Under the pieces are notes generated by a model. It was not told the origin of the DNA and made no database searches. It saw nothing but the letters and a program-made list of their open reading frames with translations. The position numbers and the translations under genes were made by a program. Positions 1-17,405 of a stretch of DNA of 17,405 nucleotides are shown here, one piece after another. Source of the stretch: an uncultured Gammaproteobacteria bacterium (lineage in GTDB: Bacteria > Pseudomonadota > Gammaproteobacteria > UBA9214); NCBI GenBank assembly GCA_963827755.1, contig CAWHCQ010000052.1, positions 1-17,405 on the forward strand. Direction: 5' to 3'. The first letter of the stretch is position 1. Every line of letters begins with the position of its first letter.

Positions 1-467
1 ACGTTGACCCGCGCCACGACGTGCTCGGCGTCATCGGCGAGCATTACCACGGCGCGGTCTCATTTGTTATACATGCCTTTGGTGGTTTTGCACCTTATTT
101 GACAATCGCCGGAGTGGCGACGGCCTGGTACATGACGCTGAAGAACCCGGGTTTTGCGGATGACATGCAAAAGCGTTTCAGCGGCCTCTACCGAGTGCTG
201 GTCAACAAGTACTACGCCGATGACTTCAACGAGGCCGTGTTTGCCGGCGGGGCACGCGGCGTCGGCCAGCTGTGCTGGAAGATCGGCGACGTGCTGATCA
301 TCGACGGGTTGATTGTCAACGGCAGTGCGAAGGTCGTCGGCTGGGTGTCCAGCGTCGCGCGTCACCTGCAGACCGGCTACCTGTATCACTATGCCTTCAG
401 CATGATCGTCGGCCTGTTGCTGATGCTGTTCTGGTTCGTGTTCATGGCACCGGGAGCAGGCGCATGA
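1..467 (+). CDS. nuoL: NADH-quinone oxidoreductase subunit L, 3' part (5'-truncated by window)
   Basis: Frame open from position 3. Has the NuoL C-terminal motifs NKYYADDFNE, GDVLIIDGLIVNG and LQTGYLYHYAFSM. The stop overlaps the nuoM start (ATGA, 464-467). Confidence 0.95.
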   Translation, partial: VDPRHDVLGVIGEHYHGAVSFVIHAFGGFAPYLTIAGVATAWYMTLKNPGFADDMQKRFSGLYRVLVNKYYADDFNEAVFAGGARGVGQLCWKIGDVLIIDGLIVNGSAKVVGWVSSVARHLQTGYLYHYAFSMIVGLLLMLFWFVFMAPGAGA

Positions 468-2038
468 CCGACTTGCCACTGCTCAGTTTACTGATCTGGC
501 TGCCGATTGTCGGCGGCGTGGCGCTGCTGGTGATGGATACTCTCGGCAACACGGCATGCCGCCAGACGGCCTTCGTCGTCGCGATGGCCACCTTCCTGCT
601 GAGCCTGCTGCTGTACACGAACTTCGATATGGCGACGGCGGCCATGCAGTACCAGGAAAAGGTGCCGTGGATCGCGGCGTTCAGTGCCAATTACCATCTT
701 GGTGTCGATGGCATCTCGATGCCGCTGATCATCCTCACCAGCTTTACCACGGTGCTGGTGGTGCTGGCCGGCTGGCAGGTGATCAAGGACCGTACGGCAC
801 AGTACATGGCGTCCTTCCTGATCATGGAAGGGCTGATGATCGGCGTGTTTTCCGCGCTCGATGCCGTGCTGTTCTATGTCTTCTGGGAGGCGATGCTGGT
901 GCCGATGTTCCTCATCATCGGCATCTGGGGCGGTCCGAACCGGGTCTATGCCACCATCAAGTTTTTCCTCTATACCTTCCTCGGCTCGGTGTTCATGCTG
1001 GTCGCGCTGATCTACATGTACCTGAAGGCCGGCAGTTTCAGCATTCTTGATTTCCACGTGCTGCCGCTGAACATGACCGAACAGGTGCTGATCTTTATCG
1101 CCTTCCTGATGGCCTTTGCGGTGAAGGTGCCGATGTGGCCGGTACACACCTGGCTGCCGGATGCGCACGTCGAGGCGCCGACCGGCGGTTCCGTGGTGCT
1201 TGCCGCCATCATGCTGAAGATCGGCGGTTACGGCTTCCTGCGTTTCAGCCTGCCGATCACGCCGGACGCCAGCCATGAACTCGACTGGCTGATTATCCTC
1301 ATGTCGCTGGTGGCGGTGGTCTACATCGGCTTCGTGGCGATGGTGCAGGAAGACATGAAGAAGCTGATTGCCTATTCATCGATTGCGCACATGGGCTTCG
1401 TCACGCTGGGCATCTTCCTGGTGTTTACCCTGCTGGACAACAACGGCTCATTGCAGGGCGCCAGCATGGGCATGGAGGGCGGCATGGTGCAGATGATCTC
1501 GCACGGCTTTATTTCCGGTGCGCTGTTCCTCTGCGTCGGCGTGCTCTATGACCGCATGCACTCGCGCCAGATCAGCGATTACGGCGGTGTCGTCAATACC
1601 ATGCCGGTGTTCGCCGCGTTCATGGTGTTCTTTGCGATGGCCAATGCCGGCCTGCCGGGCACCTCTGCCTTCGTCGGCGAGTTCATGGTGATCCTCGCCA
1701 GCTTCAAGGCGAACTTCTGGTTTGCCTTCCTCGCGGCCACCACCCTGATTCTCGGCGCGGCCTACAGCCTGTGGATGGTGAAGCGCGTGGTGTTCGGCGA
1801 GGTCGCCAACGACAACGTGAAACAACTGGAAGACGTCAACCTGCGCGAGTTTGTCATCCTCGCAAGCCTGGTGGCCGTGGTGCTGTTCTTCGGCCTGTTG
1901 CCGGGGCCGCTGGTCGAGGTGATGCATGCCAGTGTCGATCAACTGCTGGCCCATGTGTCTGTCTCCAAGCTGCCGATCGGAGACCGGCCTGGCACTGATG
2001 CAAGGCATGCAGCCCTGAGACTAACGGAACGATTATGA
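464..2038 (+). CDS. nuoM: NADH-quinone oxidoreductase subunit M
   Basis: Starts [14 protein letters not shown] at ATG 464 after GGAG. Motifs [57 protein letters not shown]. The true stop may be 2016-2018 if one base near 1980 is an error. Confidence 0.96.
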
Positions 2039-3471
2039 CCATTCCCCTGACTGACTTCGCACCTTTGGCCACGGAGCTGTTCGTGCTCACAATGGCCTGC
2101 ATCATCCTGGTCGTGGAGGCCTTCTTCGGCGAGCAGCGCCGTCAGCTGAGTTATGTGCTGGCGCAGCTGACCCTGCTGGTCGCGGCCCTGATCAGCTGGA
2201 ACATGCTCGATGCGGGCAGCGTGGTGGTGCTGGGCGGCAGCTTCGTGCATGACCCGATGGCGGCACTGTTAAAGACCAGTGTTTTCCTGGTGACGGTCGG
2301 TGCCTTCGTCTATGCGCGCGGCTACCAGACCGGCAAGGGCAGCCTGCGCGGTGAGTTCTACGTGCTCGGCCTGTTTGCCGTGCTCGGCATGATGGTGATG
2401 ATCTCGGCGCACAGCCTGCTGACCATCTACCTCGGGCTGGAGCTGCTGTCGCTGTCGCTCTATGCGATGGTCGCCTTCGACCGCAATTCGTCGCCGGCCA
2501 GCGAGGCGGCGATGAAGTACTTCGTGCTCGGCGCGCTGGCCTCCGGCATGCTGCTCTACGGCATGTCCATGCTCTACGGCGCCACCGGCAGCCTCGACCT
2601 TGCCGAGATCGCGGCCGCCATTTCCGTCATGCAGGACAGCGGCCTGATCCTGATCTTCGCGCTGTGTTTCATCGTCGTCGGGCTGGCCTTCAAGTTCGGC
2701 GCGGTGCCGTTTCACATGTGGGTGCCGGATGTCTACCACGGCGCGCCGACCGCCGTGACCCTGTTTATCGGCAGCGCCCCGAAGATCGCGGCCTTCGCCA
2801 TGGCGATGCGCCTGCTGGCGGAATCGCTGGGCGGCCTGATGCCCGACTGGCAGGGGATGCTGGTGATCCTCGCGGTGCTCTCGCTGGCGCTCGGCAATGT
2901 CATCGCCATTGCACAGACCAACCTGAAACGCATGCTCGCCTATTCGACCATCTCCCATGTCGGCTTCCTGCTGCTGGGCATTCTTGCGGGCACGCAGGAA
3001 GGTTATTCGGCGTCCATGTTCTATGCCATTACCTATGCGCTGATGGCCATCGGCGCCTTCGGCATGATTATCCTGCTCAGCCGCCAGGGCTATGAGGCCG
3101 ATAAGCTGGATGACTTCAAGGGGCTGAATGAACGCAGCCCCTGGTTTGCCTTCATGATGCTGATGCTGATGTTCTCCATGGCCGGTGTGCCGCCAACCGT
3201 CGGTTTCTACGCCAAGCTGTCGGTGCTGCAGGCCGTGATCCACGTCGACATGCTGTGGCTGGCCCTGGTCGCGGTGGTCTTCTCGGTGATCGGCGCGTTC
3301 TACTACATTCGCATGGTCAAGCTGATGTACTTCGACAAACCCGAATCCGAACAGCCGCTGGTCATCAATACCGATTTGCAGGTTGCCATGAGTATCAACG
3401 GGCTGGCCGTGCTGTTGCTGGGGTTGTTTCCGGGTGGCCTGCTGACGCTCTGCCTGAACGTGTTGTCCTGA
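2035..3471 (+). CDS. nuoN: NADH-quinone oxidoreductase subunit N
   Basis: Motifs [60 protein letters not shown]. Follows nuoM. Confidence 0.97.
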
Positions 3472-3478
3472 TAAAGGT

Positions 3479-3515
3479 TTCCGGGTTTGCCGGAAGCGCG
3501 GAGTTCATCCGCGCT
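3479..3515. repeat. Two adjacent short hairpins just after nuoN (the second REP-like)
   Basis: TTCCGG(3479-84)/CCGGAA(3490-95), and AGCGCGGA-GTTCA-TCCGCGCT (3495-3515, perfect 8-bp stem). Confidence 0.5.
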
Positions 3516-3525
3516 GAATCACGTC

Positions 3526-3825
3526 TTGTTGGAGCGCCTTGCAGGCGCGGTTTTATTGTGATGCGGGCTCTCGCGCCCGCGCGGCGAGATACTTTTCTTT
3601 GCTTCGCCAAAGAAAAGTATCCAAAAGAAAGGCGACCCGGAGGCTGCAGCCCGCTACTCATTTTCATGAGTATTCGGGTTCCCTGCGCTTCTCGCGAAAA
3701 CCGGCGCATGCGCAACTCGCAATCTCGCTGCGCTCGAAAGCTCAAACAGGGCGCATGCTTCATCCGGTTTTCACTGCGATGCTCGGCTGCGCCTACGGGA
3801 GGGGTAGATCAAACCCCCATACTCA
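3526..3825 (-). repeat. ~300-bp structured repeat element, copy 1 (left arm of large palindrome)
   Basis: Aligns end to end with the reverse complement of 3827-4136. Outer ~80 nt and inner ~33 nt are nearly identical; the internal stems have diverged with compensation. Strand inferred from GNA loops and G-T wobble. Confidence 0.9.
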
Positions 3826-3826
3826 C

Positions 3827-4136
3827 TGAGTATGGGGGTTGATCTACCCCTCCCGTAGCACTCACCGAGTACCGCAGCCAATCCGGGGAATAGCCGCGCA
3901 CCCTGTCTGAGCTTTCGAGCGCAGCGAGATTGCGAGTTGTGCGCGGCCCCGGATTGGCGAGGAACGCAGGGGACCGCGCGGCGAAGCCGCCTTGCTGTAC
4001 TTGCCTAAGCGGTGAGTGCTCCGGGGTGCCCTTCTCTTTGGGTACTTTCTCTTGTGGCGAAGCAAAGAAAGTATCTCGCCGCGCGGGCGCGAGAGCCCGC
4101 ATACAATAAAACCGCGCCTGCAAGGCGCTCCAACAA
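3827..4136 (+). repeat. ~310-bp structured repeat element, copy 2 (right arm)
   Basis: Inverted copy of 3526-3825. Nested stems 3857-67/4010-20, 3877-88/3947-58 and 3894-3901/3939-46. Confidence 0.9.
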
Positions 4137-4143
4137 AGAAATC

Positions 4144-4225
4144 GGCGGAGCAAAGAAAAGTACCTCGCCGGCGGGCGCGAAAGCCCGCATCAAATAAAAC
4201 CAGCGCCTGCAAGGCGCAACAAAAG
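4144..4225 (+). repeat. Partial third copy (3' ~80 nt) of the element, in tandem with copy 2
   Basis: GGCGGAGCAAAGAAAAGTACCTCGCCGGCGGGCGCGAAAGCCCGCATCAAATAAAACCAGCGCCTGCAAGGCGC resembles 4056-4138. Confidence 0.85.
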
Positions 4226-4363
4226 TCACACATGCGCCTGCACACGCAAGGGCGATTAGCCCGGGACTTCCGCCCCTGCGGACCCGTAACCGTGCCACGC
4301 GGCTGGCCATCTGCCTCAAAACGAGAGCGTTTCCGTAAAAATCAGCCTTTTGGGGCTGAGGGC

Positions 4364-4400
4364 TTGAAAATAAGCAGTGCAATCGGCTACACTCCTCGGC
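4364..4400 (+). promoter_or_regulatory. Sigma70-type promoter for tRNA-fMet/rimP operon with GC-rich discriminator
   Basis: TTGAAA (4364-69), 18-bp spacer, TACACT (4388-93), then CCTCGGCC, just upstream of the tRNA. Confidence 0.65.
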
Positions 4401-4406
4401 CGTTGA

Positions 4407-4483
<77 letters not shown>

Positions 4484-4600
4484 ATCAAGACATTATCCCG
4501 CATGTTTGCAGGGGTTTTGTAGCCCGGACAGGAGTCCATAGTGGCGCCGCAGGCAGGGTAGTCGGTTGATACACTGCGCGAGAAAAATATAGGAGTTATG

Positions 4601-4628
4601 GAGTGGGCCTTTGGCCCATTTTTTGTTT
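4601..4628 (+). terminator. rimP leader hairpin / intrinsic terminator-like attenuator
   Basis: TGGGCC-TTT-GGCCCA (4604-18) followed by TTTTTTGTTT directly before rimP, matching the GGGC...GCCC-U-tract leader known upstream of rimP. Confidence 0.75.
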
Positions 4629-4640
4629 CCGGAGTAAGGC

Positions 4641-5099
4641 GTGAGGCAGGATCCCTTGAAGATTGGTGAGCTGCTGGAGCCGGGAATTCGCTCGCTGGGT
4701 TACGAGCTTGTCGGCGTGGAATACCGGAGGGGCGGCCCGGGTGGCGATCTGTTGCGTGTCTACATCGACAAGGAAGACGGGATCTCGGCGGATGACTGCC
4801 AGAAGGTAAGTTACCAGGTCAGCGGTGTGCTCGATGTCGAGGATCCGATCACGGGGCACTACACCCTGGAGATCTCGTCACCCGGGCTGGACCGCCTGTT
4901 GTTCAAGCGGGAAGACTTTGAACGATTTGCCGGGCAGCAGGTGAAACTGCGCGCTATCTACCCGATTGAAGGGCGGCGCAAGTTCAAGGGACGCTTGCTC
5001 GGGCTGCGGGATGCGAATGTCGTCATCGAGCAGGATGGCGAGGAACTCAGCCTGCCGATTGACCAGGTTGAACAGGCGCGCCTGGTGCCGGAATACTGA
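4641..5099 (+). CDS. rimP: Ribosome maturation factor RimP
   Basis: GTG start after GGAG. Motifs [35 protein letters not shown]. Precedes nusA. Confidence 0.96.
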
Positions 5100-5124
5100 A
5101 TGCGGTATTTGGAGGTTTGCGAGA

Positions 5125-6687
5125 ATGGACAGTAAAGAGATATTGATGGTCGTCGATGCGGTGTCGAATGAAAAAGGCATCGACAAGGAGATCATCTTTG
5201 AAGCCATTGAGGTTGCATTGGCGACGGCCACCCGGAAAAGCCACGGGGGAGAGATCGATGCGCGCGTCGCAATCAATCGTGACACCGGCGAATACGAGAC
5301 CTTTCGCCGCTGGCAGGTGATTGACGACAGTCTCGAGCCGGAACCTGTGGCGGACGCGGACGCAGACGCGGAATCGGACGAGGAAGGACCACTGGTTTTC
5401 GAGCACCCCGAACGCCAGATTACGCTGGCCGCCGCGCAGCTTGACGATCCCGATATACAGCATGGCGATTTCATCGAGGAACCCATAGAGTCGGTTGCCT
5501 TTGGCCGCATCGGCGCACAGACCGCGAAGCAGGTGATCGTCCAGAAAGTGCGCGAGGCCGAACGTGCCATGGTCGTCGAGGCCTACAAGGACCGCGTCGG
5601 GGAGCTGGTTACCGGTATCGTCAAGCGTGTCGAGCGTGGCAACGTTTATCTCGATCTCGGCATGAACGCCGAGGCGATCATCCTGCGTGAGGAAATGATT
5701 CCGCGCGAGGCCGTGCGTCCGGGAGACCGCCTGCGCGGTTATTTGCGCGATGTCAGTGCCGAGCAGCGTGGACCACAACTGTTTGTCAGTCGCGTCGCGC
5801 CCGATTTTTTGCTTGAGTTGTTCAAGCTCGAGGTGCCTGAAGTCGGGCAGGACCTGATCGACATCCTGGCGGCCGCACGTGATCCGGGCCTGCGTGCCAA
5901 GATTGCGGTAAAGAGCAACGACCCGCGCATCGACCCGGTCGGCGCCTGTGTCGGTATGCGTGGTTCACGTGTACAGACGGTGTCCACGGAATTGTCGGGT
6001 GAGCGTGTCGATATCATCCTCTGGGATGAAAACCCTGCCCAGTTTGTTATCAATGCGATGTCGCCTGCAGAGGTTTCCTCGATCGTCGTCGATGAAGATT
6101 CGCATACCATGGATATTGCCGTGGTCGAGGAACAGTTGTCGCAGGCCATCGGCCGTGCCGGGCAGAACGTGCGCCTTGCCAGCCAGTTGACCGGCTGGAC
6201 GCTGAATGTAATGGATGAGGTGCAGGCCGAGGAAAAGGGTGAGGCAGAGGCGGCAGAGTTGCAGAAGCTGTTTACCGAGCAACTCGACGTGGATACCGAG
6301 ATTGCGGCCATCCTGGTACAGGAGGGTTATTCCAGTATCGAAGAAATTATCTACGTACCGAATAGCGAACTGCTTGCTATCGAGGAGTTTGACGAAGAAA
6401 TGGTCGAGGAGTTGCGTGGCCGGGCGCGCGATGTGCTGTTGACGCAGGCGATCATGAAAGAAGAGAAAATCGGCGATAATGAACCGGCTGCTGATCTGCT
6501 GGAAATGGAAGGTATGGACGAAGGTCTCGCCTACGAGCTTGCCGGCCGCGGCATTATTACCATGGAAGACCTCGCGGAACAGGCGGTTGATGAGCTGATA
6601 GATATCGAGGGGATGGACGAGGCACGGGCCGGGTCCCTGATTATGACAGCCAGGGCGCCCTGGTTTGCGGAAGAAGCGGTTGAGTAA
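5125..6687 (+). CDS. nusA: Transcription termination/antitermination factor NusA
   Basis: ATG 5125 after GGAGG. Motifs [68 protein letters not shown], acidic C-terminal repeats, ARAPWF. Confidence 0.98.
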
Positions 6688-6700
6688 TGGAGTGGATGTA

Positions 6701-9262
6701 ATGTCAAACGTCACGGTAAAACAATTTGCTGAAGTCGTCGGGGTTCCCCCGAACCGTTTGCTTGTGCAACTGGGTGAAGCCGGTCTTGAAATAAGTGATG
6801 AGAACGCCACTATTTCGGACAAGGAGAAGACCCAGCTGCTGGACTTTCTTCGTCAAAGCCATGGCAAGCGCGGAGCACTGTCAACCGGTGGCGCCAGCAA
6901 GGTTACCCTGAAGCGAAAAACCCAGAGCGAATTGCGTGCCACGGTGCCAGCCGGTCGCGGACCTGCCGGTCGCGGTGCCGTTCGTGCCAGGCCTGAAACC
7001 AAGACCGTCAGGGTCGAGGTTCGCAAGAAACGCACCTATGTAAAGCGTGCGGATTTGATGGCCGAAGAGCAGGAGCGCGTCAACAAGGAGCTGGAAGAAC
7101 AGCAGGCCAAGCGCGCTGCCGAAGAAGCCGAAGAGGCAGCGGCACGCAAGTTGCGGGAAGATGCCAAAAAGCAGGAGCAGGAAGAAAAGGCCGCAGAGGA
7201 GTCAAAGCTGCAGGCGGAGCGCGAAAGCAGGCAGCAGGCAGCCGAGGAGGCGCGCCTGCAGTCAATCGCGGCGTCAGAGGCCAAGCAGCAGGCGGAAACG
7301 GAAGATGCCCGCCAGAAGAAACCTGCCGATGCTGATCGCAAGTCGCGCAAGGCCGGTGCCGGAAAGAGCACCAAGTATGGCCGCCAGGAATTGCACGTTG
7401 CAGCAGGCAAGGGCGGGCGCCGCAGGAAAAAATCGAAGGCAACACGACGCGTCAGCATCGAGAGTACCGGTGAACACGGTTTTGCGTTGCCGACTGAATC
7501 AGTCGTGCACGAGGTCGAGATACCGGAAAATATCCAGGTCTCCGAGCTGGCCCGGAAGATGTCCATCAAGGCTGCTGAAATTATCAAGGTACTGATGCAG
7601 CTGGGTGTGATGGCCACGATCAACCAGGTACTGGACCAGGATACGGCAACACTGGTTGTCGAGGAAATGGGACATGTCGCCAAACCGGTTGATGAGAATG
7701 CGCTCGAGGCGGAACTGATACAACAGGCTGCCGAGGTCGAGGGTGACAGGTTGCCGCGACCTCCGGTAGTCACGATCATGGGCCATGTCGATCACGGCAA
7801 GACCTCGCTGCTGGATTATATCCGCCGTACCACGGTGGCCGATGGTGAAGCTGGCGGTATTACCCAGCATATCGGCGCCTACCACGTAGAAACATCAAAG
7901 GGGATGATCAGTTTTCTCGATACACCCGGACATGCCGCCTTTACGGCCATGCGCTCGCGCGGTGCCGGCGTGACCGACATTGTCATCCTGGTGGTTGCCG
8001 CCGATGACGGCGTCAAGCCACAGACCAAGGAAGCTGTTCAGCATGCCCGGGCGGCCGATGTTCCGCTGCTGATTGCCGTCAACAAGATGGACAAGGCGGG
8101 TGCCGATATCGAAAAGGTCAAGACCGAACTGGCGGCGCTCGAGGTGATCCCGGAAGACTGGGGGGGTGACACGATGTTCGTGCCGGTCTCGGCGAAAACC
8201 GGTGACGGCGTCGATGCATTACTCGATGCCGTGTTGCTGCAGGCGGAAGTCCTGGAACTGACCGCGGTATACGATTGTCCTGCGACCGGTATCGTGGTGG
8301 AGTCCAGCCTCGACAAGGGGCGTGGTGCCGTGGCCACGGTGCTGGTACAAAACGGTATACTCAAAAAAGGTGACCTGCTGCTGACCGGTGAAGAGTATGG
8401 CCGGGTGCGCGCCATGTTTGATGAGAGCGGCAAGCAAATCAGCGAGGCCGGTCCATCCATGCCTGCACTGGTACTGGGCTTGTCTTCTGTACCGAATGCC
8501 GGCGATGACGTGATCGTCGTTGCCAATGAGCGCAAGGCCCGTGAACTGGCGGAGCAGCGCAAGGAGAAGGCACGCGCCAGGCGGCTTGAATCCCAGCAAC
8601 AGGCACGCCTCGAGGATGTTTTCTCGGCAGCCGCGGAAGGCAGGGTGCCAACAGTCAATATCGTGCTGAAGGCGGATGTACAGGGCAGTGCGGAAGCATT
8701 GAGTAACGCCCTGGTCAACCTGACGGCTGAACAGCCCGACGTCAAGGTCAAGGTGATTTCCAGTGGTGTCGGCGGCATCAACGAGTCCGACGCAAGCCTG
8801 GCAATCGCTTCGAATGCAATCATTATCGGCTTTAATGTGCGTGCCGATTCCTCCTCGAAGCAGATGATCGATGAGAACAATGTTGACCTCAGGTATTACA
8901 GCGTCATTTATAATGCCATCGATGACGTCAAGGCCGCCGCCAGCGGCATGATGGCGCCGGAAACCCGGGAAGACATCATCGGCCTGGCCGAGGTCAAGGA
9001 AGTCTTTCTGTCACGCAAGCTGGGTGATATCGCCGGCTGTATTGTCGTCGACGGGGTGGTGCGCCGTAATTCGCCGATCCGCGTGCTGCGTGACAATGTC
9101 GTGGTCTACGAAGGCGAACTCGAATCCCTGCGGCGCTTCAAGGATGACGTCAACGAGGTCAAGTCCGGCACCGAGTGTGGTATCGGGGTGAAGAATTACA
9201 GCGTCAGTGCCGGTGACCAGATCGAGGTATTTGAACGCGTCCAGGTGGAACGCTCCCTGTAG
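6701..9262 (+). CDS. infB: Translation initiation factor IF-2
   Basis: ATG 6701 after GGAG. GTPase motifs [38 protein letters not shown], plus KADVQGS and the C-terminal ECGIG. Confidence 0.98.
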
Positions 9263-9282
9263 CACTACAGGGGACTGTCCCC
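9255..9282. repeat. Two overlapping short palindromes at the infB stop
   Basis: CCCTGTAG-CA-CTACAGGG (9255-72) and GGGGAC-T-GTCCCC (9270-82). Confidence 0.55.
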
Positions 9283-9358
9283 CTTATCGCGCTTCCGGTA
9301 TCCATTCCCGTATGCAATTGTTTTGCGCCAAGCAGGTCTGCTTCCGGATTGCGCCCTG

Positions 9359-9733
9359 ATGCCGAAAGAGTTTCCAAGGACGCGCCGTGTCGGCGAGCAA
9401 ATCCAGCGTGAACTGGCGGCATTGATACATGATGAGCTGAAGGACCCGAGGCTGGGCATGGTCAGCATCTCCTCGGTACATGTATCACGCGACCTGGGCC
9501 ATGCAAAAGTTCATGTTTCGGTACTCGGTAATGCCGACCAGACCAGGGAATCCCTCGAAGTGTTGAATCATGCTGCCGGTTTCCTGCGTCACAAGCTTGG
9601 CAAGCTCATGCACATACGGGTGATACCTGCGCTGCGCTTCTATCACGACAGGTCACTGGAAGAGGGCGCACGGCTGGGCGCGCTGATTAACGAGGCGATC
9701 GCCAGTGACAAGGGAAATACTGATGATGAATAG
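9359..9733 (+). CDS. rbfA: 30S ribosome-binding factor A
   Basis: MPKEFPRTRRVGEQIQRELA, KDPRLG, VSRDLGHAKV, PALRFYHDRSLEEG. Start chosen at ATG 9359 by family N-terminus. Confidence 0.96.
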   Translation: MPKEFPRTRRVGEQIQRELAALIHDELKDPRLGMVSISSVHVSRDLGHAKVHVSVLGNADQTRESLEVLNHAAGFLRHKLGKLMHIRVIPALRFYHDRSLEEGARLGALINEAIASDKGNTDDE

Positions 9734-9762
9734 CTCTTTCTCAAACAGGCCTGTGTTCGACC

Positions 9763-10686
9763 ATGAGTAGACGCCAGCGAAACAGTCACCTGCGGCCCGT
9801 CAACGGCATACTGTTGCTCGACAAGCCTGCCGGGGTGACTTCCAATGCCGCGCTGCAGACGGTGAAGAAGTTATACCGCGCGCGCAAGGCCGGGCATACC
9901 GGCAGCCTTGATCCGCTTGCCACCGGTTTGCTGCCGATCTGCTTTGGCGAGGCGACCAAGATTTCGGGCTTCCTGCTGGATGCCGACAAGGACTACCTGG
10001 TCACCTGCAAGCTGGGTGAGCGCACCAACACCGGCGATGCAGAAGGCGAGGTGCTTGAGCAGCGCCCGGTAAAAGGTGTCACCGAGAAGCGCGTGCGCCA
10101 GGCCATGCAGGAATTCATCGGCGATATCGAGCAGATTCCACCGATGTACTCGGCCCTGAAACACAAGGGTGAGCGCCTCTACAAGCTGGCGCGCCAGGGT
10201 GTTGAAGTCGAACGCGAGCCCCGCACGGTGACGATTTTCGGGATGGAGATGCTGGATTTCGGCCTGCCCGAGGCAACCTTCCGGGTGCATTGCTCGAAGG
10301 GGACCTACGTGCGTACCCTGATAGAGGACATGGGCGAGATTCTAGGCTGTGGCGCGCATGTGATCGGTCTGCGCCGCCTGGGGGTTGGCCCCTTTGACGA
10401 TAGCGGCATGATTGAACTGGGCACCTTGCAGGCGCTGGCCGCGGAGGGGGTGGCCGAGCTGGACAAGCTGTTGCTGCCGCTGGAACGCGGCCTGGCCCAC
10501 TGGCCGGATGTGCGCCTCAGCGGGGACGCGGCTTTTTACCTGCGCCAGGGCCAGCCGGTGCTGGTGCCGAATGCGCCGACCGACGGCTGGGTGCGTATCT
10601 ACGAGGGCGAATCGCGTTTTATGGGCATGGGCGAGATCCTCGACGATGGCCGGGTGGCCCCGCGCCGGCTGATGACGGCCCGCTAG
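9763..10686 (+). CDS. truB: tRNA pseudouridine(55) synthase TruB
   Basis: GILLLDKP, KAGHTGSLDPLATGLL (catalytic Asp), QIPPMYSALK, CSKGTYVRTL, C-terminal PUA-like region. Confidence 0.98.
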   Translation: MSRRQRNSHLRPVNGILLLDKPAGVTSNAALQTVKKLYRARKAGHTGSLDPLATGLLPICFGEATKISGFLLDADKDYLVTCKLGERTNTGDAEGEVLEQRPVKGVTEKRVRQAMQEFIGDIEQIPPMYSALKHKGERLYKLARQGVEVEREPRTVTIFGMEMLDFGLPEATFRVHCSKGTYVRTLIEDMGEILGCGAHVIGLRRLGVGPFDDSGMIELGTLQALAAEGVAELDKLLLPLERGLAHWPDVRLSGDAAFYLRQGQPVLVPNAPTDGWVRIYEGESRFMGMGEILDDGRVAPRRLMTAR

Positions 10687-10711
10687 TTGCGGCTATCCCC
10701 TGCAGGAGAGC

Positions 10712-10740
10712 TTGTGGCGAGCCTGAAGCACGGTTAAAAT
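10712..10740 (+). promoter_or_regulatory. Probable rpsO-pnp sigma70 promoter
   Basis: TTGTGG (10712-17), 17-bp spacer, TAAAAT (10735-40). SD CAGGAG lies before the rpsO ATG. Confidence 0.55.
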
Positions 10741-10782
10741 ACCGGGCTCAACAGATTTTACAAGTAAATTCAGGAGTTTTTC

Positions 10783-11052
10783 ATGGCTTTGAATGCCGAA
10801 CAAAAAAGCGAGATTGTAAAGACCCATCAGCGCGCAGCGGATGATACCGGGTCGCCGGAAGTGCAGGTTGCCCTGCTGACCGGGAACATTGCAGCGCTGA
10901 CCGAACACTTTGCAGCACACAAGGCTGATCACCATTCCCGAAGAGGACTCCTGCGCATGGTCAACGCGCGCCGCAAGCTGCTCGATTACCTGAAGGGTAA
11001 AGACAGCACGCGCTACCAGGACCTGATCACCAAGCTTGGCCTGCGCCGTTAA
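10783..11052 (+). CDS. rpsO: 30S ribosomal protein S15
   Basis: 89 aa. [33 protein letters not shown]. Confidence 0.99.
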
Positions 11053-11108
11053 TTAATCACTTCTTGCCGGCTTAACCCGCCACCTTTTTCAGACGAGGAA
11101 ATACACCC

Positions 11109-13193
11109 GTGAGTGCAATCAAGAAATCCTTTCAGTACGGTGACCAGACGGTCACGATCGAGACCGGGGAAATTGCCCGCCAGTGTAGTGCAGTCATCGT
11201 CAGCATCGGTGATACCAAGGTGCTTGCCACCGTGGTGGGTGACAAGCATCCGATGGTAGGGCGTGACTTTTTCCCGATGACAGTTGATTACCAGGAAAAG
11301 GGTTATGCAGCCGGTCAGATACCCGGTAACTTTTTCCGCCGTGAAGGACGCCCGAGCGAACCCGAGACACTCATGTGCCGCCTGATCGACCGGCCGCTTC
11401 GTCCGCTGTTTCCGAAAGGCTTCACGCACGAAGTGCAGGTCATCCTCACGGTGATCTCCTACGACCCGCAGATCCAGCCCGATATCGCCGCATTGATCGG
11501 CGCCTCCGCCGCCATGTCCATTTCCGGACTGCCGTTTGCAGGACCGGTAGGCGCGGCCCGCGTCGGCTATATCGACGGCAACTACGTGCTCAACCCGACG
11601 ACCGAGCAGCTGGAAGTGTCGAAACTCGACCTGGTCGTTGCCGGTACCGAGAGTGCCGTGCTGATGGTGGAGTCCGAGGCGAAGGAGTTATCCGAAGAAG
11701 TCATGCTGGGTTCCGTACTGTTCGGACACGAGCAGCAGCAGGTCGTTATCAAGGCCATCAGGGAACTGGCTGCCGAGGTGAACACACCGCCAATGGCGTG
11801 GACAGCACCGCAGGAGAACACATCACTGGCCGACGCCGTCGAGAAGGAAGGCGCCGAGGCCATTGCAGCCGCGTACAAGGTGGCCGACAAGCAGGACCGC
11901 TATACCCTGTTGAGCAAGGTGCGCGAAGAGATCGTCGACAAGGTGGCCGATGATTCAGACGGCGGCTTCTCGCGTGATGAAGTCAAGGGCGCGACTGGCA
12001 AGCTCGAGAAGAAAACCGTGCGCAGCCGCATCCTCTCCGGTGAGGCCCGCATCGACGGACGCGATACCAGCACCGTGCGTCCCATCACCATTCGCATGGG
12101 CGTGTTGCCGCGTGCACATGGTTCCGCACTGTTTACCCGCGGCGAGACCCAGGCACTGGTAGTGACCACGCTGGGTACCGAGCGTGATGCGCAGTTGATC
12201 GACGCGCTCTCAGGCACGACCAAGGAACAGTTCATGCTGCACTACAATTTCCCTCCGTACTGTGTCGGTGAAACCGGCCGCGTCGGTGGCACCAAGCGCC
12301 GCGAAGTCGGCCACGGCAAGCTCGCCAAGCGCGGCGTTGCCGCCGTGATGCCGCCGAAGGACAGCTTTCCCTACACCATTCGCATTGTCTCGGAAATCAC
12401 CGAGTCCAACGGCTCCAGCTCCATGGCCAGCGTCTGCGGCAGCAGCCTGTCGATGATGGATGCCGGTGTGCCGGTCACCGGCGCCGTTGCCGGTGTGGCC
12501 ATGGGCCTCATCAAGGAAGGCGACAGCTATGCCGTGCTCACCGATATCCTCGGTGACGAGGACCACCTCGGCGACATGGATTTCAAGGTGGCCGGTACCG
12601 GAAACGGCGTGACCGCACTGCAGATGGATATCAAGATCCAGGGTATCACCGGCGAGATCATGGAAAAGGCCCTTGCCCAGGCGAACCAGGGCCGCATGCA
12701 TATCCTCAGTGAAATGTCCCGCGCCATCAACGCGCCGCGTGAAGACGTGTCCGATTACGCGCCGCGTTACATCACCATAAAGATCAATCCCGACAAGATC
12801 CGCGATGTCATCGGCAAGGGCGGTGCAACCATCCGTGCCATCCAGGATGAGACCGGTGCCAATATCGATATCGATGATACCGGCACTATCAAGATTTCAT
12901 CCGTCGACCTCGACGCCGGTAACGAGGCGCGCCGCCGCATCGAACAGATCACCGCCGATGTCGAAGTCGGTACCATCTACGACGGCAAGGTCGCCAAGCT
13001 GATGGATTTCGGCGCCTTCGTCACCATCCTGCCGGGCAAGGACGGCCTGGTGCACATCTCGCAGATCTGCGAAGAGCGTGTACAGAATGTCAGCGACAAG
13101 CTGTCCGAGGGCGACCTGGTCAAGGTCAAGGTGCTCGAGGTCGACAAGCAGGGCCGCATCCGCCTGAGCATGAAGGCTGTCAACGAGGGCTAG
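11109..13193 (+). CDS. pnp: Polyribonucleotide nucleotidyltransferase (PNPase)
   Basis: GTG start after [61 protein letters not shown] (VIGKGG) and S1 domains. Confidence 0.98.
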
Positions 13194-13216
13194 CAGGTAC
13201 AAAGCACAGGCAGTAC

Positions 13217-13245
13217 AAAAAAAGGGCCGGCAGGCCCTTTTTTTT
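13217..13245 (+). terminator. Rho-independent terminator after pnp (bidirectional form)
   Basis: A7-GGGCC-GGCA-GGCCC-T8. Confidence 0.9.
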
Positions 13246-13356
13246 GTGGCGGGTGATAAATGCGCACCGGCAGGACGCCGATAAAGACGGAACCCTGTTA
13301 AGCAAGTGCTATTCGACACCGGACCCCTTTCTTGTGATACATAGCTGGAGAGACTT

Positions 13357-13818
13357 GTGACCAATAACGACATCTTGCGCCGCATTCGCTATATTTTCGA
13401 TTTCGACGACTCGAAGATGATTGCTGTCTTCGGGCTGGCGGATTACAAGGTGACGCGGGAGCAGGTCAGCGCCTGGCTGAAAAAAGACGCTGACCCGGCG
13501 CTTCAAAAATTAAGCGACGTTCAGCTGGCGAGTTTCCTCAATGGCCTGATCATCGACCGCCGGGGTCAGAAGGAAGGGGCACAGCCGGAGCCCGAGCAGC
13601 AACTGACCAACAATATTGTCTTCAGGAAGCTGAAGATAGGACTGGACCTGAAAGCCGAGGACGTACTGGAGATACTGGCGTTGAGCGACATGCGTATCAG
13701 CAAACACGAGTTGAGCGCGCTGTTTCGCAAGCCGGGTCACAAGCACTTCCGTAAGTGCAATGACCAGATCCTGCGTAATTTCCTGAACGGGCTGCTCCTG
13801 AAATATCACGGCAAATAA
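13357..13818 (+). CDS. yehS: DUF1456 (YehS-family) protein
   Basis: Duplicated-domain pattern MTNNDILRRIRY...FLNGLI / LTNNIVFRKLKIGL...SKHELSALFRKPGHKHFRKCNDQILRNFLNGL. GGAG before the GTG start. Confidence 0.88.
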   Translation: MTNNDILRRIRYIFDFDDSKMIAVFGLADYKVTREQVSAWLKKDADPALQKLSDVQLASFLNGLIIDRRGQKEGAQPEPEQQLTNNIVFRKLKIGLDLKAEDVLEILALSDMRISKHELSALFRKPGHKHFRKCNDQILRNFLNGLLLKYHGK

Positions 13819-13906
13819 ACAGGTGGCCGGCTCGAGTGCGCGTCCCCGGATTGCGCCTCTCCAGGCTGGCCCGGATCACGACATCTGTCCTTCGGGAATA
13901 TTCGAG

Positions 13907-14359
13907 ATGAAAAAATTTTACAAACCGGCAGTGATCGCGCTCCTGCTTTTCACAGCCTGCGGAAGCGCCACCGGAAAAAACGACAAGCAGGTTATCGGCC
14001 CCGTTGTCGGGGTGTATATCAATGAAGGTGGTCTCTATTTCTCGGCCCGTGTCGATACCGGGGCAGAAACTTCGTCCATCAACGCCCGGAATATAAAATT
14101 CTCCAATGGACAGGTGGAGTACTCCATCGTCAACGAGAGCGGCAAGGCGGCCAGGCTGACGTCGAGGGTAGTCAGGGAGTCGACGGTGAAGAGTGCGGAA
14201 TCCAGGGAGAAACGATACTACGTCTACCTGACGATCTCGTATATGGGGCTTGTAAAGAAGACCCTGGTGAACCTGAATACCCGGGACGAGTCCAGATACA
14301 AGTTGTTACTTGGCCGGAACTGGCTGTCGGGCAGTTACGTCGTAGACGTCGACAGGTAA
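13907..14359 (+). CDS. Retropepsin-like protease ('putative ATP-dependent zinc protease'/RimB-like family), probable lipoprotein
   Basis: ARVDTGAETSSI and LLLGRNWL motifs. The start MKKFYKPAVIALLLFTA-C gives a lipobox-like signal. Confidence 0.8.
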   Translation: MKKFYKPAVIALLLFTACGSATGKNDKQVIGPVVGVYINEGGLYFSARVDTGAETSSINARNIKFSNGQVEYSIVNESGKAARLTSRVVRESTVKSAESREKRYYVYLTISYMGLVKKTLVNLNTRDESRYKLLLGRNWLSGSYVVDVDR

Positions 14360-14446
14360 ATTAAATGGCGGCAGGATGTTTTTCTGCTTATAGTAAAAAG
14401 AAGCGCCCCTGTACCTTCCCGGTACCCAACACTGGAGTGAGCCCTG

Positions 14447-14734
14447 ATGAACAGTAAAGACGCCTACATTGAAAAAGCCGCGGCCAGAATCGAAGAATAT
14501 TCAGCCAAACTCGAACTCCTCAAGGCGAAGGCCGGGGTAGAGGTCGTCAACCGGAAAATCGACGCACAGGAACACATCGTCAAGCTCGAGGCGTCTCTCG
14601 AAAACGCAAAATCACGGCTCACGGAGCTCTCCGATGCGGCCGAAGACGGCTGGGAGGACCTGTCGGAGCGGTTTGAGGTACTGGCGGACGACCTCGGGGC
14701 GTCTTTCAGGAAGTTCTTCGCGAAGCACGAATAG
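14447..14734 (+). CDS. Small coiled-coil protein (resembles Sll1863-like stress proteins)
   Basis: 95 aa, helical and charged: KDAYIEK...KLELLKAKA...EDGWEDL. GGAG SD. Family assignment is from recall only. Confidence 0.7.
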   Translation: MNSKDAYIEKAAARIEEYSAKLELLKAKAGVEVVNRKIDAQEHIVKLEASLENAKSRLTELSDAAEDGWEDLSERFEVLADDLGASFRKFFAKHE

Positions 14735-14817
14735 CAGGCACCCGCACGAGGCGGATACACGGCATGGCAGGACCGCTCGTGAAGCCTGCGCCACCTTTAC
14801 TCCATCGGAACTGAACC

Positions 14818-15780
14818 GTGTTGAATCTGGTTTACCTGGCACTGGGCCTGGTCCTGCTTACCCTGGGGGGCGAGGCGTTGATCCGCGGCGCTCTCGGCGC
14901 CGCCCGGCGCTTCGGGGTTTCTCCGTTACTGAGCGGGCTGGTGATCGTCGGCTTCGGCACCTCGGCCCCCGAACTCGTGGTCTCTGTCGAAGCGGCGCTT
15001 GCCGGCCAGCCGGACATCGCCATCGGCAACGTCGTCGGCAGCAACATCGCGAACATCCTGCTGATCCTGGGAGTCTGCGCATTGATCACACCGCTGGCCG
15101 TGCGGCGGTTGGCACTGCGCCGCGACGCCGTCACCGTGGTGGCCGCCAGCGTGCTGTTTATTATCCTCGCCAGTGGCGGCGCGCTGTCGAAGTTCGACGC
15201 CCTGATCCTGCTTTTGTGCCTGGGCACGTACCTGGTATGGGCCTGGTGGAGCGAAAGCTACCAGGGTGAACCGGCCGCCGACGTGCATCGCGCCGAGGCC
15301 GGGGAACTGACCCTGGTGCCGAAGCCGCTGGTCGTCACAGTGCTGGTGCTGGTAACCGGCCTGCTGCTGTTGATTGGCGGTTCGCACGTGCTGATAAAAG
15401 GGGCGGTGGGGCTTGCCGAAAGCCTTGGCGTCTCGGAGGCGCTGATCGGTTTGACGGTGGTCGCGGTCGGTACCTCGCTGCCTGAATTCGCGATCTCGGT
15501 GATTGCCGCGCTGCGCCGGCATGCGGACGTGGCGGTCGGCAATATTCTCGGCAGCAATATCTTCAACCTGTTCGGAATCCTGGGTGTGTCCGCGCTGCTC
15601 CAGCCGCTGCCGATTCACGCACGCATCCTGCAATACGATCAATGGTGCATGCTGGGCGCGGCCCTGCTGCTGTTGCTGTTCCTCTACTCGGGGCGACGCC
15701 TCAGCCGGCTTGAAGGCTTCATACTGCTGGCGGGTTACGGGTGTTACCTCGGCCTGGGTGTGGCTGCATTCGGGACCTGA
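14818..15780 (+). CDS. Calcium/sodium antiporter (CaCA, YrbG-like)
   Basis: Two alpha-repeats, GFGTSAPEL...AIGNVVGSNIAN and AVGTSLPEF...AVGNILGSNIFN, and about 10 hydrophobic segments. Confidence 0.92.
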   Translation: MLNLVYLALGLVLLTLGGEALIRGALGAARRFGVSPLLSGLVIVGFGTSAPELVVSVEAALAGQPDIAIGNVVGSNIANILLILGVCALITPLAVRRLALRRDAVTVVAASVLFIILASGGALSKFDALILLLCLGTYLVWAWWSESYQGEPAADVHRAEAGELTLVPKPLVVTVLVLVTGLLLLIGGSHVLIKGAVGLAESLGVSEALIGLTVVAVGTSLPEFAISVIAALRRHADVAVGNILGSNIFNLFGILGVSALLQPLPIHARILQYDQWCMLGAALLLLLFLYSGRRLSRLEGFILLAGYGCYLGLGVAAFGT

Positions 15781-15904
15781 CCCCGGGCGCGAGTCATGCC
15801 GCCGGACAGGTTCCGCGGCACAGGGTGATTGTGGGAAATGCTGCAAAAAGGCGGCCACCACCGTGATGTTCTGCCACTTCGTGACAGAAAAACGACGCTA
15901 TAAC

Positions 15905-15913
15905 TGCTACAAT
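15905..15913 (+). promoter_or_regulatory. Possible extended -10 promoter for the TPR gene
   Basis: TG-C-TACAAT in an AT-richer intergenic region, 40 bp before ATG 15953. Confidence 0.35.
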
Positions 15914-15952
15914 CAACAAGTATGACGCTCTGACAGTGTTGGGGGCAGTGGC

Positions 15953-16844
15953 ATGAATCAGTCTTTATTTCCGGTAAACGCACGGCGCTTCTTCTTCGGG
16001 CTGGTCGCAGTGCCGGTCCTGGTGTGCACCCTCTGCGCCTTTCCCGTGCTCGCCCACGTCGGCATCTCCGAGGAGATCGAGGCGGTCACGGCGCAGCTCG
16101 AGGATGAACCCGAGGCTCCTGAACTCTACCTGCTGCGCGGCGATCTGCATCGCATCAACGGGCACTGGCCCGAGGCGATCGCCGATTTCAACAAGGTGCT
16201 GCAGCTCGACCGGGACAACGCATTGGCCGAGCTGGGCCTGGGCAGGACCTGGCTGGACCGCGGCCAGTTCCGCAAGGCGCTCAGGCACCTGGACCGCGCG
16301 CTTGCCCGCGAGCCCGGCAACGTGCGTGCGCTGGTGTCCCGGGCGCGGGTCTATCGCCGGTCCGGCAGACCGCTGGAGGCCGCTGCCGATTACCAGCGTG
16401 CGATCGCTACGTTTACAGCACCCGCAAATCCAATCCCGGAATATTACTTCGAACGTGCGCGCGCCCTCGAGGCCGCCGGCGCCGATTACATCGGCGCAGC
16501 AATCGCAACGCTGGATGCCGGCATCACCCGACTGGGCAAGCTGCGTATTTTCGAAGACTATGCCATCGAGCTTGAACGCAGGCGCGGCAATTACGGCGTC
16601 GCGCGCCAGCGCCTGGACCGCATTATCGAGCGCTCGGCACGCAAGGAAGCCCTGCTGCTCAGGCGTGGTGAAATCCTGCTGGAGGCCGGCGAGCCTGCTG
16701 CGGCCGCGGCTGACTTTGCCGCAGCACGCGCCGCTATCGATGCGCTTGCCGGAACAGCGCCGCCACAGCCGGGCGATGAAACAGATGCGTAGCGACATCG
16801 ATCAGCGCATGCATGCGCTGAAACAACCGGGCGGCGGGGAATAA
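15953..16844 (+). CDS. Exported tetratricopeptide-repeat protein (apparent +1 frameshift near 16746; ends at 16792 as read)
   Basis: Signal peptide ending PVLA-H. TPR patterns LYLLRGDL...AIADFNKVL, LGLGRTW...ALRHLDRAL, YYFERARAL. Removing one base gives ...AIDALPEQRRHSRAMKQMRSDIDQRMHALK...* at 16844. Confidence 0.8.
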
Positions 16845-16879
16845 GGACATGCGCTATCCGTTACTCCCGGGCCAGCCGC

Positions 16880-17405
16880 ATGAAGCACGTTTTTCTGCTG
16901 ACGCTGGCCGGCCTGTTGCTGTGGCCCCTGTCCCCGGCGCGTGGCCGTCGAGGTGCTGGTGGAGTTCGGCAGCGCCAACAAGTACCTGGTCAATACCAGC
17001 GACCCCGGCATAGGGGAGGACTGGACGGCCGAGAGCTATCCCGCGGAATCTTCCTGGGCCGACGACGGGACCTACGGCATCGGCTACGACACGAGCACGG
17101 GTTCGAACGCGCTCAACCTGCTGGATACCGTCGTACCGAGCGGCCTGAGCGGCAGCCGTCCGCGCACGATCTACACCCGCACCACGTTCAATATCACGGA
17201 TATCAATACCGTCAACAACGTCGTCCTCGGCGCGGACTATGATGACGGCTACGCGGCCTGGATTAACGGGGTCGAGGTGTTTCGTTCTGCCCGAATTGCC
17301 GTCCTCGGGTGCGCTCGACTGGAATACAACGCCCGGCTCGCACGAGTCGAGCAATGCCACGCTGCCCGATTACAATCCCTTGAGAAACATTAGCACTGCT
17401 GCTTT
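16880..17405 (+). CDS. N-terminus of a secreted protein with a galactose-binding-like domain (YDDG-x4-NG-x-EV-x-R), interrupted by apparent +1 frameshifts; runs off the window
   Basis: The signal peptide MKHVFLLTLAGLLLWPLSPA joins the 16941 frame (IGYD...TIYTRTTF...ADYDDGYAAWINGVEVFRS) after a one-base shift. A second shift at ~17291 continues open to the window end (ELPSSGALDWNTTPGSHESSN...). Confidence 0.65.

Follow-up and report, generated by a model that had tools for sequence, protein, structure and literature searches.

The window analyzed here has 17,405 nt (positions 1-17,405 of the forward strand of contig CAWHCQ010000052.1, assembly GCA_963827755.1) and comes from an uncultured Gammaproteobacteria bacterium (UBA9214), whose own genome totals 2.85 Mb in 52 contigs and is 92% complete; coordinates without a contig label refer to this window. 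Between nuoN and the tRNA-fMet/rimP operon, it carries a ~700 bp insertion at 3526-4222, whose right half is the hairpin-rich region that a first-pass annotation, made from the letters alone, had proposed to fold as single-stranded DNA (ssDNA). The insertion consists of two inverted ~300 bp halves, A (3520-3826) and B (3827-4136), which are 78% alike, and a 79 bp end module (4144-4222). The NuoN-type gene to its left (Pfam Proton_antipo_M) has its stop at 3471. To its right, a promoter-like site, tRNA-Met and rimP are followed by long open reading frames (ORFs) at 4966-6687 and 6665-9262, an order that we take to be the metY-rimP-nusA-infB operon, with the names nusA and infB being presumptive. 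The features of the locus, including the hairpins hp1, hp2 and hp3 and the variable (V) hairpin slots, are as follows.

3526-3559, + strand: left hp1 module, in which the GTTG-tagged hairpin GCGCCT-TGC-AGGCGC (3534-3548) is followed by GGTTTTATT; its 34 nt are 100% complementary to 4103-4136.
3563-3580, no strand assigned: hp2 at the A end, GCGGGC-TCTCGC-GCCCGC, overlapping the ancestral terminal hairpin (TCTCGC...GCGAGA).
3588-3621, no strand assigned: hp3 of the A unit, whose A/T-rich stem has 14 bp (GATACTTTTCTTTG / CAAAGAAAAGTATC) and whose 6-nt loop reads GCGAAG on the outward strand.
3650-3678, no strand assigned: V hairpin slot of the A unit, whose sequence varies among copies and which holds a hairpin in every copy.
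3696-3772, - strand: long arm hairpin of the A unit, with outer stem GAAAACCGG/CCGGTTTTC, inner stem CGCATGCGC/GCGCATGC and apex CTCGC-TGC-GCTCG.
3774-3793, + strand: A-type invariant 20-mer, CTGCGATGCTCGGCTGCGCC.
3794-3857, no strand assigned: dimer centre, here a palindrome of ~32 bp that is near-perfect and has its axis at 3826.
3858-3877, + strand: B-type invariant 20-mer, GCACTCACCGAGTACCGCAG, with CCCGTAG before it; positions 4010-4020 pair with its 5′ part to form the closing helix.
3878-3957, + strand: long arm hairpin of the B unit, with apex CGAGC-GCA-GCGAG at 3916-3928.
3974-4012, + strand: V hairpin slot of the B unit, with a private GCGGC-GAA-GCCGC (3978-3990) and the right-arm remnant of a hairpin found in other copies.
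4044-4072, + strand: hp3 of the B unit, ACTTTCTCTTG ... CAAAGAAAGT (helix 9), whose loop includes GC-GAA-GC (4057-4063).
4083-4100, no strand assigned: hp2 at the B end, GCGGGC-GCGAGA-GCCCGC.
4103-4136, - strand: right hp1 module, with its hairpin at 4114-4128, terminator-like on the - strand: GCGCCTTGCAGGCGC GGTTTTATTG.
4144-4222, - strand: extra tandem end module ('copy 3'), with half an hp3 (GC-GGA-GC, 4145-4151), hp2 (4171-4188), hp1 (4203-4217) and a - strand T-run.
4364-4393, + strand: promoter-like site of tRNA-Met.
4407-4483, + strand: tRNA-Met (CAT), upstream of rimP.
4641-5099, + strand: rimP, downstream of tRNA-Met.

The three 'copies' distinguished by the annotation are borne out, namely the A half, the inverted B half and the extra end module. 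The real unit, however, is the half, because copies from two further genera include solo A units, A-B dimers and A-A′ dimers. It is a multi-helix imperfect hairpin of ~220-250 nt. Going outward from the centre, a GT(A/T)G-like tag comes first and is followed by the invariant 20-mer and the closing helix; beyond these lie the long arm hairpin, the variable hairpin slot and the A/T-rich hp3, and a GC hairpin forms the end. The two unit types, A and B, are diverged and usually stand head to head, with A-A′ dimers and solo units also found. The centre between them is a near-perfect palindrome in this lineage only; in other species, it is an A/C-rich spacer and not palindromic.

The composite element is present at 16 loci of its own genome, where A halves are 90-97% and B halves 85-93% alike, and a BLAST search of that genome returned these loci, two fragments and nothing more. 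The whole element has matches in 22 of the 24 genomes sampled from the genus and in none of 16 other families of the class. Across a sample of the order, the invariant 20-mer CTGCGATGCTCGGCNGCGCC (at most 1 mismatch) is found in 31 of 54 genomes and three of six genera, with 1 hit for a reversed-pattern control, and the other genomes with the motif have 1-10 hits each. In species other than the own one and G012, its closest relative, the element measures 410-500 bp and lacks hp1 and hp2; its terminal hairpin is then TTTCGCCC-NNNN-GGGCGAG, with a loop that varies from copy to copy. The terminal hairpin was also considered as a separate, abundant repetitive extragenic palindrome (REP) of the own genome, a reading that was rejected on only 28 loose pattern hits.

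The helices of the unit are kept by compensatory changes. In an alignment of 29 B units on the outward strand (A1), the RNAalifold consensus has 54 pairs, 16 of them with changes on both sides, and 97.8% of cells are paired vs 93.5% in shuffles; on each of five measures, 0 of 500 shuffles come up to the alignment, and in slid controls the number of pairs changed on both sides is 0-6. In particular, both-side changes affect 10 of 20 pairs in the B long arm (helices 5 and 6) and 3 of 7 in the B closing helix (helix 2), and the A-unit long arm (3696-3772) shows compensatory changes as well. Moreover, in an alignment of 100 of the 126 collected units, chosen for length, hp3 anchor and uniqueness, three or four pair types occur at each position of the arm stem. 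Even the differences between A and B within the 'invariant' motif covary with their partners, with C-G/T-A in 58-59 A units vs T-A/C-G in 38 B units. It follows from this covariation that each half folds independently. Long-range helices between A and B contain A.C and G.T mismatches that are fixed, being present in 26-27 of 27 elements.

Quasipalindrome correction is an established process, and one account of the element denies it any function: decaying palindromes that are hairpin-like only via template switching at the DNA level and gene conversion between arms or copies. The concerted evolution of copies within genomes, the centre that became palindromic in one lineage, and the variable slots, which contain perfect hairpins of unrelated sequence, all fit this account. 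However, A and B keep conserved non-complementary differences as well as the fixed A.C and G.T mismatches just described, and the invariant 20-mers persist across three genera. Further, the end bases of the loops are kept while the middle varies, a pattern that arm-to-arm correction does not account for, which leaves this account improbable.

The loops of these hairpins were surveyed in 126 units (74 A and 52 B; 125 unique) from ~25 genomes, selected by a core motif with at most 1 mismatch, oriented with the motif outward and limited to hairpins with at least 4 Watson-Crick pairs. Among 156 outward-strand triloops, 72 are G-N-A (20 distinct contexts) and 4 are T-N-C (4 distinct contexts); among 178 tetraloops, G..A loops number 36 (GNRA 7, GNYA 29) and T..C loops 3. 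UUCG accounts for 0 of 178 tetraloops on either strand, and UNCG for 1 outward and 6 inward. The annotation had read GNA triloops on the strand that runs outward from the centre and had proposed to count them against GNRA and UUCG loops across homologues; that count favours it, and the strand polarity that it saw in one locus extends to the whole family. The loops also follow the C-GNA-G / C-GNNA-G rule of DNA mini-hairpins, with the RNA-type GNRA and UUCG nearly absent. In the 20 distinct GNA contexts, the closing pair is 5′C..G3′ in 16, T..A in 4 and G..C in 0, and the middle base of all GNA loops is C (32), T (18), A (15) or G (7). Similarly, the apex loops of the V hairpins in B units (GCA 10, GTCA 6, GTA 4, GTTA 4, GCCA 3, TTTA 1) keep their ends and vary in the middle. 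For comparison, GNA makes up 158 of 2736 triloops (5.8%) outside the elements, and the 58 native terminator-like hairpins of the own genome include 42 tetraloops, of which 13 are GNRA or UNCG.

Within the window, the motif strings cited by the annotation lie on the + strand where it placed them: CGAGCGCAGCGAG at 3916-3928, GCGGCGAAGCCGC at 3978-3990, GCGAAGC at 4057-4063, GCGCCTGCAAGGCGC at 4114-4128 and GCGGAGC at 4145-4151; the GCGCCTGCAAGGCGC hairpin recurs at 4203-4217. The region 3857-4217 contains 7 GNA triloops with at least 2 Watson-Crick pairs, compared to 1.80 ± 1.28 in 2000 dinucleotide shuffles (4 of which reach 7), and 3 with stems of at least 5, compared to 0.05 ± 0.22 (0 of 2000), although two of these three long-stem hairpins are copies of one module, hp1. 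The fold energy of the region is far below that of shuffles on either strand, as DNA (z of -5.95 for + and -6.12 for -) or as RNA (-6.06 for + and -3.66 for -). Because folding is strong on both strands with both parameter sets, the energy models choose neither strand nor chemistry. Across 27 dimers, the whole-strand fold energy is slightly better for the - strand in 20, by a mean of 6 kcal/mol; this edge is ascribed to the G/T-rich complement of the A/C-rich centre and is uninformative.

The loop rule has a counterpart in oligonucleotides. According to a 2026 review of mini-hairpin DNA (PMC13037366), the DNA hairpins of GCGNAGC and GCGNNAGC, which have a sheared G.A pair, are extraordinarily stable and melt at 76.5 C vs 39 C for r(GCGAAAGC); GTTA loops are tolerated, and such motifs occur at the phage G4 origin, at ssiA and in the N4 early promoter. 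The element's loops resemble these d(GCGNAGC)/d(GCGNNAGC) mini-hairpins in being G-N-A or G-NN-A with a free middle, in their 5′C..G3′ closing pair (16 of 20) and in the presence of the GTTA type (PMC13037366). Unlike the oligonucleotides, they cap long stems in a fold of 250 nt, with T-A as the closing pair of hp1, and the strands are not told apart by nearest-neighbour folding. The best-supported reading, to which we give about even odds, is that the body of the element folds as DNA on the outward strand.

Several observations weigh against this reading. The loop counts overstate the number of independent events, since the loop types descend from a few ancestral hairpins. Two of the hairpins that the annotation had cited are not kept: the GAA hairpin at 3978-3990 has a single genome match and sits in a hypervariable slot that holds other hairpins elsewhere, and the hp3 loop of most B homologues is not GNA but GGCAAG (13), GGCACT (9) or similar, with GC-GAA-GC found once. 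(In most A units, the hp3 loop is GCGGAG or GCGAAG.) The wobble evidence is weak. On the outward strand of the unit alignment, G.T outnumbers A.C by 55 to 23 in helices common to both strand-wise predictions; in A1, the counts are 25 and 9, plus one invariant G.T, for a structure derived on the outward strand, which favours G.U; over whole elements, counts of 26 vs 26 and 204 vs 172 show no asymmetry. Overall, the wobble asymmetry is weak and pseudo-replicated. Rare substitutions on the outward strand likewise showed no strand asymmetry in a test of low power (C>T 18 vs G>A 25, p 0.88).

Moreover, a multi-helix fold with conserved junctions resembles structured RNAs, and the element could be a trans-acting structured noncoding RNA gene, or a divergent pair of them whose transcription starts near the centre and runs outward. 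The strong covariation and conserved unpaired junctions, the invariant 20-mers kept across three genera, the G..A loops and slight excess of G.U over A.C on the outward strand, and the RNA fold of the + strand (z -6.06) would suit such a gene. However, an Rfam covariance search of 3000-5000 returned only the tRNA above the gathering score, with other matches sub-threshold, and copies in five relatives gave 0 Rfam matches at E ≤ 1. A scan of the element found neither an outward promoter nor an outward terminator. No promoter is conserved, the centre is variable, the DNA that precedes the invariant motif in solo units is unrelated, and the outward 3′ hairpins lack a U-tract. The loops are G-N-A and G-YY-A rather than GNRA or UNCG, and there are 1-16 dispersed copies, homogenised within genomes. 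We consider such a gene unlikely. Readings of the invariant motifs as sigma-54 or sigma-70 promoters, made by eye, were rejected for wrong spacing and an absent -10. A coding reading was dropped too, as all 5 ORFs overlapping the element lack a Pfam family and copies differ by indels in their hairpin slots.

Transcript data touch the element only slightly, and a search of sequencing runs returned small shares only. Coverage in the RNA libraries (among four runs) is mainly tRNA and provides no strand or end information. One 309-nt contig from the X15 RNA library (depth 9.4) covers 3666-3799 and 3852-3901, which counts weakly against a DNA-level reading, with the library being unstranded and possibly containing DNA. 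The X16 RNA-library contigs hold hp1 pairs only; in them and in contigs of the X1 DNA run, hp1 is joined to an inverted hp1 with ~20-25 other letters between (window joints 3549/4113), which suggests that hp1 pairs without the body exist in other organisms or loci.

The hp1 module itself points inward. The annotation had counted this GCA hairpin among the outward ssDNA hairpins, which is not borne out: hp1 (GCGCCT-GCA-AGGCGC) has its tag and T-run on the inward strand. The own genome contains 39 copies, 31 in elements and 8 elsewhere as GTAGGA-hairpin-CGAT, a form shared with the REP family found on either side of the genome's own REP-associated tyrosine transposase (RAYT). On the inward strand, 25 of 39 copies have a GTNG tag (GTAG in 6 of 39) and 32 of 39 have at least 5 T in the next 12 nt. 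Since the REP/RAYT enzyme reads the GTAG strand of ssDNA (PMC3479197) and the tag is inward, the relevant hp1 strand is opposite to the one that the annotation chose. Judged from tag, T-run and copies, hp1 is better read as an inward, REP-derived, terminator-like module, a relative of the genome's GTAG-tagged REP family. It is confined to the own species and G012.

In the window, a GC stem-loop with a T-run occurs at three hp1 sites, 3534-3548 (+), 4128-4114 (-) and 4217-4203 (-), all inward; they make up 3 of the 7 terminator-like sites in 3300-4600, where shuffles have 1.8 ± 1.5. Read inward, the left hp1 is an intrinsic-terminator-like site just past nuoN. The terminal hairpin, too, looks better on the inward strand, which likewise speaks against an outward reading: GTAC TTTTCTTT comes after it, and only on that strand do T.G pairs lengthen the stem. 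These features, together with the T-runs after 32 of 39 hp1 copies, belong to another explanation: a cis-acting RNA element on read-through transcripts, serving as a two-way terminator, insulator or 3′-end stabiliser, with the hairpins forming in RNA. By a crude ORF heuristic, an ORF end lies within 300 bp and points at the element at 13 of 16 own loci, with convergent ORFs at 5; the X15 contig is a weak hint in the same direction, and REPs are reported to lie mostly downstream of genes and to be plausibly transcribed (PMC3733652). However, a read-through RNA of the nearer unit would have U-N-C or U-NN-C loops, whereas the conserved G and A are on the other strand (72 vs 4; 36 vs 3). GNRA and UNCG loops, which make up 13 of 42 in native terminators, are nearly absent from the element; termination needs little of a 450-nt body; and hp1 is restricted to two species. 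As an account of the whole element, a cis-acting RNA is possible but doubtful; for hp1 it may well be right, next to a DNA-level reading of the body.

Other hairpins surround the insertion. Right after the nuoN stop (3479-3516), there are two small hairpins, TTCCGG-GTTTG-CCGGAA and GCGCGGA-GTTCA-TCCGCGC, which do not occur in other copies and may be nuoN's native 3′ end. Past the right end of the element, but before the tRNA promoter, two terminator-like hairpins are present on the - strand, at 4226-4249 and 4342-4359, and GCGCCTGCA is common to hp1 and the 4226-4249 hairpin.

The search for a linked enzyme adds to the opposing evidence. The own genome has four Y1 (HUH) genes, one bona fide RAYT and three that are longer or broken. 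The RAYT (C17:34152-34652; NCBIfam NF047646, 142.6 bits vs a cut-off of 80) is flanked by GTAGGAGCGGATCTAATCCGC repeats. Within C17:33900-34800, five GTAGGAGCGGATCTAATCCGC-type REPs lie upstream and two downstream of it, and the loose pattern GTAGGAGCG...CGC has 108 genome matches. At C3:16020-16990, a 233-aa Y1 (HUH) gene unrelated to the element lies between inverted repeats TTCAAGGGGTCAGAGTACTTGAA that contain GGGGTCAG; the latter agrees with the GGGGWSAS motif described for TIRYT elements (PMC3733652). The element's units flank none of the four Y1 genes, all of which have other repeats at their sides. Of the 15 Y1 genes in five other genomes, one is no more than 1 kb from a unit; it is a RAYT and has REPs of its own. 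Cross-tabulated by hand, RAYT genes above the cut-off occur in 19 of 31 genomes with the invariant motif vs 15 of 23 without it, so that the two do not track each other. TnpB (PF07282, PF01385) has 0 matches in the 92% complete own genome, the small GIY-YIG gene at C44:55754-55972 lacks flanking repeats, and no unit carries a CGTC tag. The link to HUH enzymes and single-strand origins that the annotation had drawn is therefore unsupported, with no HUH gene associated with units in the own genome, in the five others or by RAYT co-occurrence. Its larger claim, that ssDNA is the functional form, stands in part: the polarity and the DNA-type loops hold, while the private hairpin at 3978-3990, the hp3 loops of B units, the inward hp1 and the missing enzyme tell against it.

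There are signs that the element moves or is copied. The nuoN/tRNA-Met spacer is 935 nt long here vs 58-152 nt, and empty, in three related species (G003, G022 and G023); it differs in G014, and the locus is missing from G012. The flanks of orthologous empty sites are too diverged for alignment. Some other loci hold the element in several species, in inverted orientation in some. Identity between copies is 0.83-0.89 within a genome, a mean of 0.81 for the same locus between species (n=9) and 0.775 ± 0.049 for other between-species pairs (n=134); this higher within-genome likeness therefore indicates ongoing copying or gene conversion rather than passive decay.

Such dispersal could also be that of an ordinary miniature inverted-repeat transposable element (MITE) moved by a DDE transposase, with the inverted halves as its terminal repeats and the internal hairpins incidental. 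The two inverted halves, the dispersed own-genome copies at 90-97% identity, the empty orthologous sites and the repeated ~45-nt end units, which are like multiple transposase-binding sites, are in keeping with this. However, no target-site duplication was seen by eye at the C52, C7 and C35 junctions, whose ends are blurred by decaying tandem end units; BLAST found no parent in the own genome, that is, no longer version in which a gene separates the halves; some units are solo or form A-A′ dimers; and compensatory changes keep internal helices for which a DDE enzyme would have no need. Moreover, the 11-kb interval between two inverted A units on C4 contains no mobility gene or transposase domain among the 15 ORFs scanned. 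A MITE is, accordingly, given little credence.

As side observations, this C4 interval (C4:87474-99093, locus L073) encloses a segment of lower GC (0.44-0.57 vs 0.574 for the genome) that encodes SoxY, a PAS histidine kinase, and CBS and PDZ proteins. In other species, 1-3 decaying tandem end units of ~45 nt (GTTTCGCCC-NNNN-GGGCGAGGTAC...) stand outside both ends of many elements (loci L055-L072); they may be traces that earlier insertions left, or else a target that is preferred. Near solo units in G008 and G002, partner units were not found within 15-17 kb.

The interior of the element has its own turnover. A small CAAGGC-TGC-GNA-GCG-GCCTTG hairpin appears in variable slots with the loops GAA (5), GTA (2) and GCA (1). 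A second REP family forms REP doublets (REPINs; GTAGGATGGGTA...TACCCATC, 26 sites, apex mostly GC-GNA-GC), which occupy the exact centres of two own copies, at C17:40037-40114 and C45:12437-12515, which suggests that insertions favour the hairpin tip. In G014 (C317, L101, 1-3000), most of the B unit of an element has given way, from right after CCCGTAG, to a RAYT gene accompanied by its own GTAGCCCGGAT... REPs. The palindromised centre, the refilled slots and the REPIN insertions would fit hairpin tips exposed as DNA.

We regard it as an even bet that the element is a compound palindromic extragenic DNA repeat of the kind of REPs, bacterial interspersed mosaic elements (BIMEs) and REPINs, ~10x larger and acting through folded DNA. 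Searches by motif string and topic, whose coverage excluded subscription journals, found no published description of it; literature matches to four motif strings were unrelated primers, and topic matches were the REP, RAYT and mini-hairpin literature. As described in PMC3479197, PMC3733652 and 10.1101/2021.07.10.451892, REPs, REPINs and BIMEs are GTAG-tagged extragenic palindromes mobilised by RAYT, an HUH tyrosine transposase. The element is likewise extragenic, mostly downstream of genes (13 of 16 loci, by the crude heuristic), with imperfect hairpins that have conserved mismatches and, on one strand, a short GT(A/T)G-like tag at their 5′ base. Its A/B inverted pairs resemble the Y/Z REPs in BIMEs and the REP doublets in REPINs; it has persisted for long in its lineage, and hp1 is related to the own GTAGGAGCG REP family. 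It differs in size and number, with units of ~220-250 nt and several helices vs 20-40 nt, and 1-16 copies per genome vs hundreds, which again speaks against the kinship. The tag is also loose, with GTAG in 5 of 29 B units and CCCGTTG (6), CCGTTGG (4), GTTTG (10), GTCTG (3) or another string (1) in the rest. Finally, no RAYT or TIRYT gene is flanked by units in the own and five other genomes, and RAYT presence does not track the motif.

Other known systems share single traits with the element. Signals of ssDNA replicons include G4-type origins, ssi/primosome sites, plasmid single-strand origins and Frpo-type ssDNA promoters. The likeness lies in mini-hairpin loops (PMC13037366) and in orientation-specific multi-hairpin folds of 150-300 nt; in contrast, such signals occur once per phage, plasmid or conjugative element, whereas the element consists of dispersed chromosomal repeats without linked replication or transfer genes. 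Correia/NEMIS and ERIC sequences are whole-length imperfect intergenic palindromes of 100-160 bp, each a simple hairpin with defined target duplications, that can carry terminator-like or processing signals; the element has 450-700 bp, two independently folding units and no duplication at junctions viewed by eye. The CGTC-tagged hairpin repeats called NTS/SRM, which Ssn GIY-YIG nucleases cut as ssDNA, are dispersed as well and show that REP-like systems beyond RAYT exist (PMC11893778). The units differ in lacking the CGTC tag, and the sole small GIY-YIG gene in having no flanking repeats.

How a folded DNA might be used can be outlined in conditional terms. The units would be copied or homogenised, and perhaps used by the cell, as folded DNA, either ssDNA of the lagging-strand template or an extruded cruciform. 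In a head-to-head pair, one unit would always show its outward strand, whichever the fork direction. In the own species and its closest relative, each end has in addition acquired a REP-derived hp1 with a T-run, which in the inward direction resembles an intrinsic terminator for the flanking genes. A bolder version, which we advance tentatively, is that the ~250-nt units form a third REP-like system beside GTAG/RAYT and CGTC/Ssn: a DNA fold kept by covariation, displayed as lagging-strand ssDNA or a cruciform and read by a putative ssDNA-specific enzyme for copying or for a host task (priming or restart, or supercoils between genes), with head-to-head pairing making it independent of fork direction.

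In practical terms, these repeats break assemblies of this uncultured group, with many copies at contig ends, and could be mis-called as small RNAs or ORFs. The element also shows a path of growth, in which an REP-derived terminator module was captured at both ends, REPINs entered the hairpin tip and slots were refilled. Known REP-type repeats are single hairpins of 20-40 nt, while the unit of this element is a 250-nt multi-helix fold whose loops follow DNA rules. If the folded form is truly DNA, few conserved ssDNA structures of bacterial chromosomes would be as elaborate, and it would offer a handle for finding a new enzyme that acts on ssDNA.

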